Below, one piece after another: positions 2,744 to 61,388 of a DNA stretch of 64,000 bases. The translations under genes and the position numbers were made by a program. How positions within the stretch are numbered: the stretch's first letter is position 1; each line of letters starts with the position of its first letter. The notes under the pieces were generated by a model. That model did no database searches. It saw only the letters and a list, made by a program, of their open reading frames with translations, and was not told where the DNA came from. The stretch comes from Patescibacteria group bacterium (GTDB taxonomy: Bacteria > Patescibacteriota > Minisyncoccia > JACQLN01): the NCBI GenBank assembly GCA_038065095.1, contig JBBTRR010000006.1, positions 20,713 through 84,712 of the forward strand, read 5' to 3'.

Positions 2744-3538
2744 ATGGATTGGCTTGAAATATTAAATAACATTTACCCTATACTAATAAGCTTATCACTT
2801 GGGCTTTCGTTGCCTTTGATAGGTGTTTTTGTTATTTTACGCCGTGAAGCTTTATTACCCGACGCAATTTCTCATATCATACTTTTAGGCATAGCGCTTT
2901 CTATTACTTTCAAAATAAACCCTTTGGTCGGCATATTAGCTTTTGCTGTATTAGCTGGTTTAGCTATTTCCTTGCTAAAAAATAAAGCCAATTTAGCCTT
3001 AGATGCTATAGTAGGAGTTTTTTTTACAACATCTTTAGCCTTAGGTTCGCTTTTAATACCTTCCGAAGAACTTTTAGAAACATTTTTAGGCAATATAGAA
3101 AAACTAACAAGAGGAGATGTTTTATTATCCACTGTACTTGCCCTAATAATAATTATTAGTTTGTTAGTTAAATTTAGAGACTTTGCTTTTGTTTCTTTTG
3201 CGCCAGACTTAGCCAAAGTAGATAAAATAAATGTAAAAAAATACGAAATATTTTTCGTATTACTTCTTTCGCTGGGCGTGGCTATTGGCATTAAACTAAT
3301 GGGTACACTTTTGGTTAGTGCTTTAATAATTGTTCCCGCCGCTACCGCCAAAATATTTAGTTTTCAAATTCGCCCTATGACGGGCTGGAGTATGATCTTT
3401 GGTTTACTTTCTGTTTTAGTGGGACTAGGCACTACCACAACCTTAAATTCTCCTCCGGGGCCAACCATAATTTTGATAAGTGCCAGTATCTTCTTTTTAA
3501 CTTTTGTAATGCATTCTATATTTAGAAAGCGTAATTGA
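2744..3538 (+). CDS. znuB: metal ABC transporter permease (ZnuB/ABC-3 family)
   Basis: About 8 TM helices, ABC-3 permease-like. Adjacent to the ATPase. No substrate-binding protein adjacent. Confidence 0.7.
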   Translation: MDWLEILNNIYPILISLSLGLSLPLIGVFVILRREALLPDAISHIILLGIALSITFKINPLVGILAFAVLAGLAISLLKNKANLALDAIVGVFFTTSLALGSLLIPSEELLETFLGNIEKLTRGDVLLSTVLALIIIISLLVKFRDFAFVSFAPDLAKVDKINVKKYEIFFVLLLSLGVAIGIKLMGTLLVSALIIVPAATAKIFSFQIRPMTGWSMIFGLLSVLVGLGTTTTLNSPPGPTIILISASIFFLTFVMHSIFRKRN

Positions 3539-19092: not shown

Positions 19093-20544
19093 ATGGAACG
19101 AATTTTGATATCTAAAACCCCTCAAAGTAAGGGGCAAAATGTTAGTGTTTCCGGCTGGGTTTGGGGCCGGCGCGATCATGGCAAATTAATCTTTATTGAC
19201 GTAAAAGACCGCACTGGTATTTTACAGTGCGTATTTTTGCCTAATAATAGAGAACTACATAAACTAGGTGATACCCTGCGCACAGGCTTTGTGGTGCAAT
19301 TAGAAGGTCAAGTTTCGGAACGCCCCAAGGGTATGGTAAACGCCGAAATAGCTACTGGGGAAGTTGAACTACAGGTCTCAAATCTTATTATATTAAACGA
19401 ATCAGAAACCCCACCTTTTGCTTTGGATACCGATGGTTTAGAAATAGGCGAGAACTTGCGAATGAAGTATCGCTATTTAGATTTGCGCCGAGATAGATTG
19501 CAAAAAAATATACGCACACGTCACCAAATATTGCAGTTTATTAGAAACTGGCTTACCGAAAAAGAATTTGTAGAAATAGAAACTCCTATTTTAACCAAAT
19601 CCACACCCGAAGGCGCACGTGATTATGTGGTACCTTCGCGTTTACAAAACGGCAAGTTTTACGCCTTGCCTCAAGCCCCTCAACAATACAAACAACTTTT
19701 AATGGTGGCTGGGTTCGAAAAATATTTTCAAATTGCTAGATGCTTTAGAGACGAAGATACTAGGGGAGACAGACAACCAGAATTTACACAGTTAGATATG
19801 GAAATGTCTTTTGTGGAGCGCGAAGATGTTATGACTTTAAACGAAGCCTTGCTTATTGCTTTAATAAAAAATCTATTTCCAGAAAAAAAGATCCAAGAAA
19901 CTCCATTTCCAAGAATAAGCTATGCCGAAGCTATGGAAAAATATAGTACCGATAAGCCAGATTTACGAAAAGACAAAGATGATAAAGATTTATTGGCTTT
20001 TTGTTGGGTTATAGATTTTCCATTTTTCGAGGAAGTTACAAAAGATAATTCTCATTTGTCAGATGAAGTGCTCGCACTTCGAAGCTCCGAAGGAGCGAAG
20101 AAGTGGACGTTTACACATAACCCATTTTCTAAACCAAAAGATGAGCATATGGAATGGTTAATGAACAAAGAAAATATTGGTGAAATTTTAACAACTCAAT
20201 ACGACATCGCCTTAAACGGTTTTGAAATTGGGGGTGGCAGTATTAGAAACCATAAACCAGAACCATTAAAAAAGGTTTTTGAAATAATGGGTTTTTCGGA
20301 AGAAAGAATCGCTTCAAATTTTGGTCATATACTTACAGCCTTAGGTTATGGCGCACCACCGCATGGTGGCATTGCTTGGGGTTTAGATAGAGTAATTACA
20401 ATATTAACGAATGAACTAAATATCCGCGAAGTCTTTTCTTTCCCTAAAACAGGCGATGGCCGAGATTTAATGATGGACGCCCCAGCCGAAATATCGGAAA
20501 AGCAATTAAAAGAACTTGGTATAAAAATAAAAAAGGACGATTAA
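19093..20544 (+). CDS. aspS: aspartyl-tRNA synthetase, short form lacking GAD insertion
   Basis: N-terminal OB fold, class II motifs, LPQAPQQYKQLLMVAGFEKYFQIARCFRDED, GGGSIR. 483 aa. Confidence 0.9.
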   Translation: MERILISKTPQSKGQNVSVSGWVWGRRDHGKLIFIDVKDRTGILQCVFLPNNRELHKLGDTLRTGFVVQLEGQVSERPKGMVNAEIATGEVELQVSNLIILNESETPPFALDTDGLEIGENLRMKYRYLDLRRDRLQKNIRTRHQILQFIRNWLTEKEFVEIETPILTKSTPEGARDYVVPSRLQNGKFYALPQAPQQYKQLLMVAGFEKYFQIARCFRDEDTRGDRQPEFTQLDMEMSFVEREDVMTLNEALLIALIKNLFPEKKIQETPFPRISYAEAMEKYSTDKPDLRKDKDDKDLLAFCWVIDFPFFEEVTKDNSHLSDEVLALRSSEGAKKWTFTHNPFSKPKDEHMEWLMNKENIGEILTTQYDIALNGFEIGGGSIRNHKPEPLKKVFEIMGFSEERIASNFGHILTALGYGAPPHGGIAWGLDRVITILTNELNIREVFSFPKTGDGRDLMMDAPAEISEKQLKELGIKIKKDD

Positions 20545-27782: not shown

Positions 27783-28910
27783 ATGAAAAACCTAAGGATA
27801 ATGCTGTGTGGCGGGGGAACAGGCGGGCATGTTTTGCCGTTGGTAGCCGTAGCTAGAGCCATTAAAAAACTTAATCCAACTGCCAAAATATACTTTGTTG
27901 GCCCAGAAGAATTCTCTTTAAATGCTTTACGCGAAGAAGGCGTAATAGTTAAAACCATAATCGCCGCGGGCAAAATAAGACGATATTTTTCGTTTAAAAA
28001 CTTTTGGGAAATAATAAAAATCCCTTTTGCCTTTATACAATCTTTAATAGTTGTGACATCCATAAACCCTAATGTGACTTTGGGCAAAGGCAGTTATGGC
28101 AGTGTGTTGCCCGTGCTAGCAGCCGATATTTTATTTAAAAAAACAATAATACATGAATCTGATGCTATACCCGGTTTAGCTAATAGATTTCTTTCTTATG
28201 TTACAGATAATGTGGCAATTTCTTTTGAAGAAGCCAGAAAATATTTTAATAACAAAAATGTATATTTAACCGGTAACCCTATACGAACAAATTTTATAAA
28301 CTTAAGTAAGGGGGAGGCGAGTAGTGTTTTAGATATTCAAACCGACAACCCTCCTTCGCATAAAGCTTCGGAAGGGCAAGGAAAAGTTATATTTATAAGT
28401 GGTGGGTCACAAGGTGCACAAAGAATTAATAATGCTGTATTAAAAGCTTTAGATTCGCTTTTAGAAAAATATTTTGTCATTTGGAGTGTAGGCAAAAATA
28501 ATTTTGATTCTATAAAACAAAAAATATCAAACAAAGATAATATAAAACTGTTTGATTTCTTAAACGAAAAAGAAATAGCTTCGGCTTACATACTATGCGA
28601 CCTTGCCGTGGGCCGCGCTGGCGCTGGCACAATTTTTGAACTAGCTGCTTTTGCTAAACCAAGTATCTTAATTCCACTGGAAAGAAAAGGTGGCGACCAG
28701 CCTGTAAATGCCTTCTCCTACACTAAAACAGGCGCTTCTTTTCTATTAAGAGAACGTGATTTAGATAACTTTAAAGAAACCCTAGAGAATATACTAAACG
28801 ACGACTCCAAACTAGATTCAATGCATGAAAATGCCGAAAAATTTGGTAAAATAGAAGCAGCCGATAGCTTAGCAAAAATATTATTAGATCTAGCAAAAAA
28901 TGAAAGTTAG
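27783..28910 (+). CDS. murG: undecaprenyldiphospho-muramoylpentapeptide beta-N-acetylglucosaminyltransferase
   Basis: GGGTGGHVLPLVAVARAI N-terminus. GT28 C-terminal domain. Confidence 0.9.
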   Translation: MKNLRIMLCGGGTGGHVLPLVAVARAIKKLNPTAKIYFVGPEEFSLNALREEGVIVKTIIAAGKIRRYFSFKNFWEIIKIPFAFIQSLIVVTSINPNVTLGKGSYGSVLPVLAADILFKKTIIHESDAIPGLANRFLSYVTDNVAISFEEARKYFNNKNVYLTGNPIRTNFINLSKGEASSVLDIQTDNPPSHKASEGQGKVIFISGGSQGAQRINNAVLKALDSLLEKYFVIWSVGKNNFDSIKQKISNKDNIKLFDFLNEKEIASAYILCDLAVGRAGAGTIFELAAFAKPSILIPLERKGGDQPVNAFSYTKTGASFLLRERDLDNFKETLENILNDDSKLDSMHENAEKFGKIEAADSLAKILLDLAKNES

Positions 28911-42363: not shown

Positions 42364-42454
42364 ATTTGTCTAAATTTAATTTATTAAATTTAGCTACAAA
42401 TATGTGTCCTGCGAAGCTTTAGCGAAGTAGGACCATATCTGTAACTGATTTTAT

Positions 42455-43590: not shown

Positions 43591-43625
43591 AATTAAAAAT
43601 CCGCTCCGACTTTTTGTCGGAGCGG
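43591..43625 (-). terminator. intrinsic terminator (minus sense) for the upstream GT-B-like gene
   Basis: Minus sense reads ccgctccgac-aaaaa-gtcggagcgg then ATTTTTAATT. Shares the cgctccga core with the 42971 terminator. Confidence 0.7.
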
Positions 43626-43631
43626 AAATAC

Positions 43632-58577: not shown

Positions 58578-59789
58578 TTACTTAGAATTTAAAATTACTT
58601 CAATAGCCTTATCTAACTGTGGATCTCTTAAGTTTTCTATATCATCTTTAGTAAATTCAACCTTAACATCAGCCTCCAAACCTTCGTGCATAATAGATTT
58701 TCCCGAAGGTGTTAACCATTTAGCAATAGTCACCTTTAAACTGGTACCTTCACGCATATTTTCGAGTTGTTGCACCGAACCCTTACCAAAACTTTTAGCA
58801 CCAATTAATTGTATTTTGCGGTTATCCCGCAAAGCTCCTGCCAAAATTTCCGAAGCCGAAGCTGAACCTTCGTTCATTAAAACCACCATCGGCATATTTT
58901 TTAAAACAGCATTGCCACTAGCTAAATATTTTTTGGTTTGAGTGCCATCGCCAAAATCTTCTATAGCCACCACACTTTCTACATCCATAAACCAACCAGC
59001 AATATCTTGCGAGACTTCTAAATAACCACCTGGGTTATTTCTTATATCTAAAACGATCCTATCGGCAGGACTTCGCAAAACATCTAGTACTGCTTTTCTA
59101 AATTCTGTAGGTGCAGTTTCACCAAAATTAAATAGCTGAATATACGCAACTTTATCTTTTTTAAGTTGCCATTTTACTGTAGGAATTTTAATATCGTCGC
59201 GAACAATGCTTATTTCTTTAATAGCGTCGTCCCCTGGTCTGCTTATGGTTAATTTAACCGCAGAACCTTTTGGACCACGTATCAAGCCCACGGCTTCACT
59301 TATACCCATATCTGCTGTAATAGTATCGTTAATTTTTAAAATTCTATCACCCGCTCTTAACCCAGCTTTTTGAGAAGGAGAATCTTCTAGTGGAGAAATA
59401 ACCGTTAACACTTCTTTTCTAACACCAATTTCGGCACCAATTCCACCAAACGAACCAGAAACATCATCTTTAAACTGTTTTGCTTCTACGGGTTCAAAAA
59501 AGGTTGTGTAAGGGTCTTTTAAAGATTTTACCATGCCATCTATAGCACCATAAACCATTTTCTTTCTATCCAAACTGGATCTATCCACATATTTATCTTG
59601 AATAATCTTCCAAGCATCCCAAAACAAACTAAAATCTACATCGTCAGGCTGAGTTAAAGATTTATTACCAACACCTTCTATGGCATATATAGATGGCACT
59701 TGGCTTTTGCCATAATAAAAACCACCATAAAAAGTGGTGACTGCAAGTGCTAAGGCAAAAATAAATAAACTAGCCGATTTCCTGTTCAT
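58578..59789 (-). CDS. ctpA: carboxyl-terminal processing protease (S41)
   Basis: PDZ plus S41 core. GAKSFGKGSVQ catalytic region. N-terminal TM. Confidence 0.85.
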   Translation of the reverse strand: MNRKSASLFIFALALAVTTFYGGFYYGKSQVPSIYAIEGVGNKSLTQPDDVDFSLFWDAWKIIQDKYVDRSSLDRKKMVYGAIDGMVKSLKDPYTTFFEPVEAKQFKDDVSGSFGGIGAEIGVRKEVLTVISPLEDSPSQKAGLRAGDRILKINDTITADMGISEAVGLIRGPKGSAVKLTISRPGDDAIKEISIVRDDIKIPTVKWQLKKDKVAYIQLFNFGETAPTEFRKAVLDVLRSPADRIVLDIRNNPGGYLEVSQDIAGWFMDVESVVAIEDFGDGTQTKKYLASGNAVLKNMPMVVLMNEGSASASEILAGALRDNRKIQLIGAKSFGKGSVQQLENMREGTSLKVTIAKWLTPSGKSIMHEGLEADVKVEFTKDDIENLRDPQLDKAIEVILNSK

Positions 59790-59876
59790 TTTGTGTTACT
59801 TTTTCCTTTTTTTAAGATTAAAAAAATAAGCCCAAACCAACCCCAAAATTATAGCTAATGCAAAATAAAAAAGATA

Positions 59877-59898
59877 CATGTCCGCCCAGTAGGAGTCG
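59877..59898 (-). repeat. partial copy of the tRNA-Lys 3' end (22 nt, 1 mismatch)
   Basis: atgtccgcccagtaggagtcg versus atgtccgcccggtaggagtcg at 60023-60044. Confidence 0.75.
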
Positions 59899-60026
59899 TC
59901 CCCTCGTCGCTAACGCGACTCTTTAAAACCTTGCGGTTTTAATATTTCCACATCGGGAAACCGAATCGTTTCCCGACCCCTTCGTTAAGGTTCGCCACCT
60001 ACCGGAATATTTTTAATTAATAAATG

Positions 60027-60099
60027 TCCGCCCGGTAGGAGTCGAACCTACGACCATCTCCTTAAAAGGGAGCTGCTCTACCAACTGAGCTACGGGCGG
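60027..60099 (-). tRNA. tRNA-Lys(UUU)
   Basis: Minus-strand sequence ccgcccgTAGCTCAGTTGGTAGAGCagctccCTTTTAAggagatggtcGTAGGTTCGACTCCTACcgggcgga. No CCA encoded. Confidence 0.85.
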
Positions 60100-60200
60100 A
60101 TAAATTTTCTAGTCTGTCCACTGGCGTCCAAAGGTCAAGTTGAGTCGGATAACAACTACTTGTCCTTCCGAAGCTCGAATATCATTCGAGCGAAGGAGGA

Positions 60201-60214
60201 AGCTACGGGCGGAT
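60201..60214 (-). repeat. partial copy of the tRNA-Lys 5' end (14 nt exact)
   Basis: agctacgggcggat at 60201-60214 and 60088-60101. Confidence 0.6.
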
Positions 60215-60281
60215 TATCTAAAGCATAATAGCAAAAAACGCCAAGAAATCAAACCAAAGGCTTAACCTTGATATAAGTAAC

Positions 60282-60809
60282 CTATTTTCTCAATAACAAA
60301 AACCCTAACAAGGGCAATCCAGCCCAAATTCCACGACTTATATCGCCCGAAAAAAGTTTATCCACCAAAGAAATATTACTTAAAACATCTACATCCGTAA
60401 CAAAATTAAGTGCGCTAGAAACCAAAAAACCCAATGTTATAACCGAAAGCAAAATCATCTTTATTCGGCCGGCATGGTCATTGCTAGCTCCGCCATAAAT
60501 ACCTTTAGCAATGGTGGTGTAAAGCAAAAAGAAAATAGCTAAAACTGCACCTAAGAAAATATAAACATTATCACCATAAGCCAACGCCCAATCAAAAGGT
60601 AGGGCTTGATATAGAGCTGTAACAATATATACAGCCACACCGAGTAATATTATTTTTCGTCTTTTTAAAAACATTGAAACCAAAACCGAAGCCACCAAAA
60701 AACCGAGTATAAAAAATGTATCCATTCTTTGCGCACCTAAAAAGAAAAGATCAAATTTAGAATTGATATTTCGAGATAAATCTATAACCCAATTTAAAAA
60801 CTTAGACAT
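60282..60809 (-). CDS. polytopic membrane protein (possibly CvpA-like)
   Basis: Four TM helices. About 175 aa. Weak resemblance to the CvpA architecture only. Confidence 0.4.
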   Translation of the reverse strand: MSKFLNWVIDLSRNINSKFDLFFLGAQRMDTFFILGFLVASVLVSMFLKRRKIILLGVAVYIVTALYQALPFDWALAYGDNVYIFLGAVLAIFFLLYTTIAKGIYGGASNDHAGRIKMILLSVITLGFLVSSALNFVTDVDVLSNISLVDKLFSGDISRGIWAGLPLLGFLLLRK

Positions 60810-60986: not shown

Positions 60987-61388
60987 TCAAGGTAACAATG
61001 CCTTGAGTTTTTCAGTTAGACCTACAAAATCTTTCTGATTGATTTCCCCTATTCTATAAGACAGCCTACGCGCGTCAACCGTTCTAATTTGGGAGAGTAT
61101 TGCAAGACTTTCAGTTCCAGATCCAAAAGAGAATTTAAAATAATAAATTTCCTTTTTATTATTTTCCTTCTTAGGCTTCGTTAACGGTAACGCCCAAAAC
61201 ATATAAACATTAAATTTTCTTAAAATTAAAACTGGTCTCAAAAAATCTTCACCTATACCGTCCTGTTCAAAACCAACATTCGCGCCCAAATGACAAAACC
61301 AAATTTCTCTTTCATGAAAAAATGGCCTTTTTTCAATATCATCGATTTGCGATTTTTTATTGTGCCAAGTTTGAAAATCTTTTTTCAC
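60987..61388 (-). CDS. MazF/PemK-like toxin-fold protein (orphan)
   Basis: REIWFCHLGANVGFEQDGIGEDFLRPVLIL...ALPLT...SQIRTVDARRLSYRIGEINQKDFVGLTEKLKALL parallels MazF GEIWWVDLDPTRGSEQAGHRPAVVL...CVPCT...DQVKSIAW... Confidence 0.55.
   Translation of the reverse strand: MKKDFQTWHNKKSQIDDIEKRPFFHEREIWFCHLGANVGFEQDGIGEDFLRPVLILRKFNVYMFWALPLTKPKKENNKKEIYYFKFSFGSGTESLAILSQIRTVDARRLSYRIGEINQKDFVGLTEKLKALLP

Follow-up and report, generated by a model that had tools for sequence, protein, structure and literature searches.

Duplications of tRNA ends around inserted DNA are already well known. A regenerated target gene accompanied by a displaced fragment is the mark of insertions in tRNA genes, crossover sites in the T loop have been described, and 5' fragments are rare, being found in 159 of 3919 islands (PMC4383910); the general principle of islands targeting tRNA genes also appears in PMC9897764. 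In this study, a 64,000-nucleotide (nt) stretch of the genome of a Patescibacteria group bacterium (contig JBBTRR010000006.1; hereafter, the window) was analysed, in which one intact tRNA-Lys(UUU) gene lies between partial copies of its own 5' and 3' ends. Each end is separated from its copy by a small insert, designated module A on the 5' side and module C on the 3' side. With a probability of roughly one half, the original ends of this gene were displaced and survive as the partial copies, and two unrelated small, hairpin-rich, non-coding modules lie inside the ancestral gene, each with a replacement end. The topology of the locus agrees with this: the outer fragments keep the ancestral junctions, A and C occur independently in relatives with repeat borders, and neither retains similarity to tRNA. 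Module A is an old element composed of units from a dispersed hairpin-repeat family, and a C-like architecture with an unrelated core occurs in another lineage. The locus is unusual in three respects: a single gene has gene-less inserts of ~100 nt at its two ends, the leader module is old and built from a hairpin-repeat family, and the trailer module combines an ultraconserved core with an inverted T-arm copy.

Like tRNA-gene islands (Islander, PMC4383910), the locus has an intact, regenerated gene, a direct displaced copy that runs from the T loop to the gene end, and unoccupied sites in relatives, and a rare 5' class exists among those islands. It differs from them in that the inserts, of 101 and ~121 nt, contain neither a tyrosine integrase nor kilobase-sized foreign DNA or any cargo, both ends are duplicated around one gene, and an extra inverted copy is present; one module is also ancient, and the fragment flanking it co-varies with the tRNA. 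None of the sublocations described for islands (anticodon loop, T loop, T/acceptor junction) corresponds to the 5' fragment, which covers nt 1-12 and points to the D stem. The locus is not classed with integrase islands because the two defining features that were tested, an integrase and island-sized DNA, are absent from it. Nothing specific on tRNA attachment sites of Patescibacteria was found in the literature.

Rickettsia palindromic elements and repeats resembling repetitive extragenic palindromes (REP) or miniature inverted-repeat transposable elements are dispersed palindromes that also insert in genes. Only one unit of the locus, the hairpin H1 of module A, resembles them: it is a recurrent hairpin in several copies with compensatory changes, it is polymorphic in presence and absence (in the murG linker, where the copies are in frame, and as tRNA-leader module A), and it has long been retained at an orthologous site. 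H1 differs in having a handful of copies in 64 kb and no long target duplication, and module C is outside the family. No cognate transposase for H1 repeats was seen in the window, and, to our knowledge, no transposase or REP-associated tyrosine transposase is known for these repeats. A further comparison is with rRNA operons, whose leaders and trailers form processing stems, and with functional tRNA spacers, for example RNAs derived from the 3' external transcribed spacer. As in rRNA operons, a predicted pairing between the leader (5' fragment and start of A) and the trailer (end of C and 3' fragment) would enclose the mature RNA; unlike in those operons, the stem consists of duplicates of the ends of the mature RNA itself, and relatives that have only A or only C lack it.

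Layout of the tRNA-Lys Locus

The locus comprises the following features, listed in window coordinates in the order of transcription, from the promoter through the small open reading frame (sORF) to the downstream peptidase gene, with the upstream anchor gene given first (aa, amino acids).

60282..60809, minus strand: gene of a 175-aa membrane protein, the upstream syntenic anchor and the query used to fetch relatives
60225..60252, minus strand: sigma-70-like promoter of the tRNA unit, TTGATT-16 nt-TATTAT with TG; the -10 element is 14 nt upstream of the 5' fragment
60201..60214, minus strand: 5' fragment ATCCGCCCGTAGCT, an exact copy of tRNA nt 1-12 plus two leader nt; the second occurrence is at 60088-60101
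60100..60200, minus strand: module A, 101 nt, with hairpins H1 (60159-60200) and H2 (60136-60162) and a decayed right arm
60026..60099, minus strand: intact tRNA-Lys(UUU), called by ARAGORN and Rfam (70.5 bits) at 60026/60027-60099
60006..60025, minus strand: AT-rich spacer of 20 nt from the tRNA to X(-), diverged among the window, L014 and L015
59988..60005, minus strand: X(-), CCGGTAGGTGGCGAACCT, an inverted copy of tRNA nt 51-68 (16/18 complementary)
59899..59987, minus strand: module C core, 89 nt, with three hairpins, one of which has a GCAA loop
59880..59898, minus strand: 3' fragment CGACTCCTACTGGGCGGAC, a copy of tRNA nt 56-74 (60026-60044) with one mismatch (C66 to T)
59796..59879, minus strand: conserved hydrophobic sORF of 27 aa, MYLFYFALAIILGLVWAYFFNLKKRKK, whose ATG directly adjoins the 3' fragment
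58578..59789, minus strand: gene of an S41 (CtpB-like) peptidase, the downstream syntenic anchor

Module A is placed after tRNA nt 12, and module C, which consists of the spacer, X(-) and the core (~121 nt in total), after tRNA nt 55. The 3' fragment starts in the T loop at C56 and ends exactly at the tRNA 3' end; the 3' repeat can be extended to 25 nt with 92% identity (59874-59898 versus 60020-60044). In dinucleotide shuffles of the window, 0.00 matches to the 3' pattern were expected at up to three mismatches and 0.19 matches to the 5' pattern at up to two. The window's other two tRNAs (Ser and Leu) have no comparable flanking copies.

An earlier first-pass annotation of the window had already placed a tRNA-Lys(UUU) gene between partial copies of its own ends, and this is confirmed, ARAGORN and Rfam each calling one tRNA. 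The exact 14-nt copy of the 5' end that it reported upstream, in hairpin-forming DNA, was recovered at 60201-60214, before the hairpin-rich 101-nt module A. The 3' copy, given there as 22 nt with one mismatch, is also real, but its length has to be corrected to 21 nt with one mismatch or 22 nt with two. The 18-nt inverted T-arm copy X(-) had been overlooked. ARAGORN detected no second tRNA or transfer-messenger RNA at the locus, and, at gathering as well as permissive thresholds, no Rfam 15 family besides tRNA was found in the window or in six loci of relatives. Neither insert contains an open reading frame (ORF), and no terminator-like site was found within the unit from the 5' fragment to the S41 gene.

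Ancestral Junctions and Independent Presence of the Modules

With the 175-aa protein as anchor, at least 30 homologous loci (L numbers) were fetched from relatives, representing ~20 distinct lineages with 52-93% protein identity. Hits of the flanking proteins, labelled Parcubacteria group, Minisyncoccia, Candidatus Yanofskybacteria and Candidatus Sungbacteria, assign the window to a Parcubacteria-like member of the Patescibacteria. The arrangement of the window recurs in several independent assemblies of one groundwater (Hainich) population (L001/L004, L005, L006, L022 and L037) and is therefore not an assembly artefact. The simple loci have their tRNA-Lys gene flanked by the 175-aa gene and the sORF. 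The tRNA 3' end directly adjoins the sORF in L020, L026, L030 and L031 (GGGCGGAC followed by ATGTAT), and the 3' fragment of the window holds the identical junction. On the other side, the full tRNA of L036 (90% protein identity) begins at the position of the window's 5' fragment, with an identical promoter and 14-nt spacing, and the same promoter was found 5' of the 5' fragment in L020 and L038. Since the outer fragments keep the ancestral junctions with the promoter and with the sORF ATG, they are read as the ends of the ancestral gene, the intact gene lying between two inserts.

The two modules occur independently of each other. Module A without C was found in L020 and L049, module C without A in L015, and both together in the window and L014, while most other lineages, including L036, L026 and L030, have neither; in L038/L039, A is present and the contig ends before the tRNA. 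Sites empty for C are found in L020, L026, L030 and L031, and sites empty for A in L036 and L015. An indel of A separates L014 from L015, with a copy of the tRNA 5' end, AGCTA(C/T)GGGCGG, at either border. These independent indels with repeat borders indicate that each module is a unit flanked by direct repeats, which extend from an internal tRNA position (12/13 or 55/56) to the gene end.

Similarity of module A or the C core to the rest of the tRNA was at chance level (local alignment versus shuffles, p = 0.19-0.74), and for want of such residual similarity the modules are not regarded as decayed tandem tRNA copies. No further copies of whole A or whole C were detected by blastn in the window or the fetched loci. 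The possibility that A and C are one element family inserted on opposite strands was ruled out, as they have no mutual similarity on either strand. Nucleotide 7 of the 5' fragment equals nt 7 of the locus's own tRNA in three of the four lineages compared (G/G in the window, T/T in L020, A/A in L049); the exception is L014, in which A7 of the 5' fragment stands opposite C66.

Further irregularities were noted around the tRNA gene in relatives. Relative to L015, L014 alone has an extra hairpin-rich insert of ~95 nt between the 175-aa gene and the tRNA unit (L014 3030-3177; ATCCCGATAT...ATATCGGGAT and CCCGACTTCT...AGAAGCGTCGGG). At 3186-3330, L028 contains a degenerate second tRNA-Lys, made up of the anticodon arm (nt 24-44) and the T loop (nt 52-63), with perfect hairpins interrupting it. 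On a low-coverage contig, L013 (1138-1295) has the tRNA followed by a tRNA-Lys-like 3' half with a 30-nt two-hairpin insert in the anticodon loop and a CCA end.

Module A and the H1 Hairpin Family

Homologues of module A are the tRNA-Lys leader modules of L014, L020, L038 and L049. The first ~70 nt are recognisable in these loci, in the window and in its strain variant L007, down to an anchor identity of 57%. Identity to the window's module declines with host distance (90% in L038, 87.5% in L014 and 73% in L020). Module A is an old, vertically inherited and structurally conserved element. The H1 hairpin has the form (C/U)CCUCC-UUC-GCUC...GAGC-UUC-GGAAGG(G/A) and is followed by the second hairpin, H2. 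Across six sequences, 96% of the possible pairs in H1 and H2 are formed and three pairs are changed on both sides. The sequences likewise support an alternative pairing, between the invariant segment CUUCGGAAGG and DNA further downstream.

The end of A nearest the tRNA is an additional, inverted H1 in L014 and L020, so that A forms a long imperfect palindrome (H1-H2-inverted H1) whose ends are ~70% inverted repeats. The right arm has decayed in the window, and only its tip is kept, as the tRNA leader, in L016.

A covariance model of H1 was built and used to scan the window and the loci of relatives. Outside the tRNA locus, the following copies were found in the window.

28349..28380, plus strand: second copy of the base of the H1 hairpin, CCCTCCTTCGC-ATAA-AGCTTCGGAAGGGCAAG, in frame in murG (27783-28910), 50.7 bits
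20071..20105, minus strand: weaker H1-family hairpin, in frame in ORF 19093-20544 (LALRSSEGAKK), 27.7 bits
42403..42432, minus strand: marginal H1-family hairpin, 40 nt upstream of the groEL start

In the MurG linker, the copy is a 32-nt palindromic in-frame insertion (NPPSHKASEGQG), of which 28 nt are common with the H1 hairpin of the tRNA leader. Because H1-type hairpins recur elsewhere, as in frame in murG, module A is considered to be built from a dispersed hairpin-repeat family. Relatives have the same palindrome at the murG site, a different one, or none. Among the different palindromes at this site, where L051 and L052 were compared, is GTACACCGAGCTTACGATCGTATGCTCGGTGTAC, giving ...PSLRSYA... 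in the protein. H1-type hairpins were also found in L036 (5467-5498), L017 (494-563) and L026 (3002-3030). These, together with the window hairpins at 20071-20105, 42403-42432 and 43600-43627, are of the CCUUCGCUC...GAGCUUCGG type; several lie directly upstream of a conserved CATATTTGTAGCTAAATTTA... motif before genes, including groEL.

Module C and Its Counterpart in L018

Module C is carried by the window, L014 and L015. Its segment from X(-) to the 3' fragment is predicted to fold into a closed multi-hairpin domain (z = -5 to -7) with X(-):3' fragment as the closing helix, which has 12 perfect pairs in L014 and L015 and is weaker in the window. In L014 and L015, X(-) matches tRNA nt 51-67 at 17 of 17 positions, and the inverted copy of L015 reaches A73, with a 2-nt deletion. 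No further copy of the C core was found in the window or the fetched loci, and it does not belong to the H1 family.

A similar architecture is found in L018 (60% identity), where a spacer, an inverted T-loop copy CAGGAGTCGAA and unrelated GC-rich hairpins are followed by an exact 19-nt fragment. This fragment again starts at C56 and matches L018's own tRNA variant; the 3' fragment spans nt 56-74 in the window, L014, L015 and L018 alike. The C architecture is therefore recurrent, with a different cargo. The C core had no matches in IMG/VR viral contigs, the tRNA 3'-end pattern matched there only unrelated phage tRNA-Arg and tRNA-Met genes, and the modules had no matches in a phage genome collection.

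Orientation Haplotypes and Gene Neighbourhood

The sORF encodes a hydrophobic peptide of 27-30 aa (MY[LI][FI]Y...LGLVW.YF[FY].LKKR..), lies just 5' of the S41 gene in all loci and has no Shine-Dalgarno (SD) sequence. In direct-type loci, its ATG adjoins the tRNA 3' end, so 3' processing of the tRNA could yield a nearly leaderless sORF mRNA; in inverted-type loci, the sORF has its own promoter 12-20 nt upstream. The 175-aa membrane protein has no Pfam family.

The tRNA and its promoter are co-directional with the flanking genes in the window and 11 other lineages (including L016, L020, L026, L028, L030, L031, L036 and L041), and opposite to them in L014, L015, L017, L021/L033 and L032/L034. Both orientations occur in each of three clades set by flank identity. 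Inverted-type intergenic regions reach local alignment scores of 46-67 across clades versus 10-22 to the direct-type region of their own clade. By these scores, the arrangements are two old orientation haplotypes rather than recent flips, and they are incongruent with the flank phylogeny because both are present in all three clades. A simple recent inversion between the window and L014 was ruled out: the upstream region of L014 is the old inverted-type haplotype and not an inverted copy of that of the window. Since A and C are found on both haplotypes, there is movement between lineages, either of the modules or of the haplotypes, for which the conserved tRNA sequence may serve as the shared anchor.

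The toxin and toxin-antitoxin genes near the 175-aa gene vary: a PemK/MazF-like gene is present in the window (60987-61388, minus strand), PIN elsewhere (L042/L047), and NYN with HicAB in L049, where the 5' fragment contains the stop codon of HicA. In L018, an insertion of 1.8 kb includes the gene of a 365-aa HExxH protein and a 153-aa ORF, and the last ~70 nt of the 175-aa gene are duplicated downstream of it (L018 3286-4795 and 4860-4940). This is read as an insertion into the 3' end of the gene with restoration; no integrase was seen.

Proposed Origin and Alternative Explanations

The insertion of two modules would have proceeded by recombination at the tRNA gene. Module C may have entered by site-specific recombination of a miniature or eroded element at the T loop, or by homology-guided transfer with tRNA arms, and module A through a palindromic repeat that inserted in conjunction with a local duplication. 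Each module would bring a replacement copy of the end it displaces; a single-copy tRNA-Lys(UUU) gene stays functional after events of this kind only. One complete tRNA would stay in the middle, and the old ends would stay with their old neighbours, the promoter on one side and the sORF ATG on the other. Subsequent loss of a module by deletion between the direct repeats would explain the patchy distribution of A and C. A single promoter presumably transcribes the whole unit (5' fragment-A-tRNA-C-3' fragment-sORF-S41), and the middle gene would be functional, its tRNA being released by ordinary end processing.

Several observations weigh against this origin. The inserts of 101 and ~121 nt are far below the size of any autonomous element. 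No recombinase was found among the 107 ORFs of the window by phmmer (XerD, lambda Int and Hin, with manually entered query sequences), nor any recombinase or transposase by Pfam among 20 ORFs at 31.8-64 kb, the ORFs at 0-31 kb having been screened by phmmer only. The 5' fragment tracks tRNA nt 7 though module A has diverged by 13-30%, which a neutral leftover should not do, and simple insertion does not explain the inverted copy X(-). Since no long target duplication was seen at the other H1 copies, insertion of H1 alone leaves the 12-nt repeat unexplained. The window and L014 do not differ in a 92-nt stretch of the C core, while the flanking coding DNA is 85-87% identical and the adjoining spacer has diverged; at 15% neutral divergence, we calculate P < 1e-6 for such identity, which suggests that the core is under constraint or has recently spread.

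Part of this evidence is shared with a rather unlikely alternative, in which the tRNA-end copies are working parts of the precursor, acting as alternative folds or as an outer processing stem. The 5' fragment would pair with the acceptor 3' strand of the tRNA or with the 3' fragment, and X(-) with the T arm or the 3' fragment; such a stem could govern tRNA maturation and, in this haplotype, cleave the transcript immediately 5' of the SD-less sORF. A function of this kind fits the co-variation of the 5' fragment with tRNA nt 7 in three of four lineages, the conservation of A with compensatory changes down to 57% protein identity, the two mutually exclusive and both supported partners of CUUCGGAAGG, the invariance of the C core over 92 nt and the tRNA-ATG abutment kept in distant relatives. 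Folding predictions agree: an 11-bp stem between the 5' and 3' fragments closes the 339-nt unit whether or not the cloverleaf is enforced (z = -5.4), and the X(-):T-arm pairing beats the cloverleaf by 7.3 kcal/mol. However, neither A nor C is indispensable (both are missing from many relatives, A from L015 and C from L020), the 3' fragment is far from the sORF in L014 and L015, A7 of the L014 5' fragment faces C66, and X(-) of the window has two uncompensated mismatches. There is also no Rfam family, and the covariation comes from six sequences only. In a variant that we regard as unlikely, the tRNA-end fragments act as functional arms of small non-coding cassettes homing into tRNA-Lys genes with any flanks and in any orientation, using the tRNA sequence as portable homology or, by analogy with integron attC and CTX-phage attP, folding the inverted and direct T-arm copies into a mimic of the target duplex. 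The inserted cassettes would build a nested precursor, whose outer tRNA-like stem would govern tRNA maturation and punctuate the transcript before a leaderless small-protein mRNA.

The footprint of integrase-mediated insertion proposed in the first-pass annotation holds in its outward features and fails in others. Its classical form, one or two former islands or prophages reduced by internal deletions to attL, ~100 nt and attR (left and right attachment sites), would fit the topology, with direct repeats reaching the exact gene ends and a C56 T-loop start in three lineages, the empty sites in relatives, a neighbourhood that is a hot spot (PemK, PIN, NYN and HicAB differ between relatives, and L018 has the 1.8-kb insertion), and the general principle described in PMC4383910 and PMC9897764. 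It is improbable nevertheless: the inserts are gene-less, the integrase search suggested there gave no tyrosine or serine recombinase in the window, nor any integrase remnant, and erosion to a near-equal tiny size would have to be independent in the window clade and L018. Module A, moreover, is a palindrome of dispersed hairpin repeats and not island DNA, old and structured, with a 5' fragment that co-varies with the tRNA, and the C core is too conserved for a dead remnant and has no match in viral contigs or phage genomes. Comparison with relatives, likewise suggested, thus gave a divided answer, in that empty sites are seen but module A is old and structurally conserved. The same applies to the view, named there as contrary, that the fragments belong to structured RNA conserved in relatives: the fragments themselves are tRNA-derived repeats, and the DNA they enclose is conserved and structured. 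Quite improbable, too, is a replication template switch, in which a fork stalled at the tRNA gene would have switched strands at the T-arm palindrome and back, with filler DNA, producing a direct-inverted-direct triplication of the 3' part, and a similar slip the 5' duplication. The order of the copies and their different end points (inverted 51-68, direct 56-74), the extension of the L015 inverted copy to A73 with its 2-nt deletion, and the same pattern in L018 with its own tRNA variant speak for it. No source copy of the 89-nt core exists in the window or the fetched loci, however, and both the conservation of the core and the repeated C56 start in independent cases stay unexplained. Decay of tandem tRNA-Lys copies with only the outermost ends recognisable, the other origin offered at first, is largely refuted and very improbable. 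The invariant H1 stem GCUC...GAGC is D-stem sequence and comes after the 5' fragment, and L028 has a degenerate second tRNA-Lys copy downstream, but the fragments have sharp borders, the remainder of both modules resembles tRNA no more than expected by chance, the ancestral junctions are on the outer fragments and not on the inner gene, and A and C are lost and kept as units.

Implications for Patescibacteria

The analysis exposed several features in these poorly known genomes: a family of hairpin repeats occupying tRNA leaders, intergenic DNA and, in frame, coding sequences; two old orientation haplotypes of one tRNA unit, shuffled across lineages; and a small membrane protein whose start codon adjoins a tRNA 3' end. 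Should the fragments have a function, the locus would exemplify a pre-tRNA under the control of duplicates of its own termini. If, as favoured here, the copies are displaced ends of a gene that received two modules, duplicated tRNA termini can arise around gene-less inserts of ~100 nt, and they would therefore be an unreliable marker of integrase-borne islands in reduced genomes such as those of Patescibacteria. Such loci would then be mis-called by tools for finding islands or annotating tRNAs that depend on displaced fragments.

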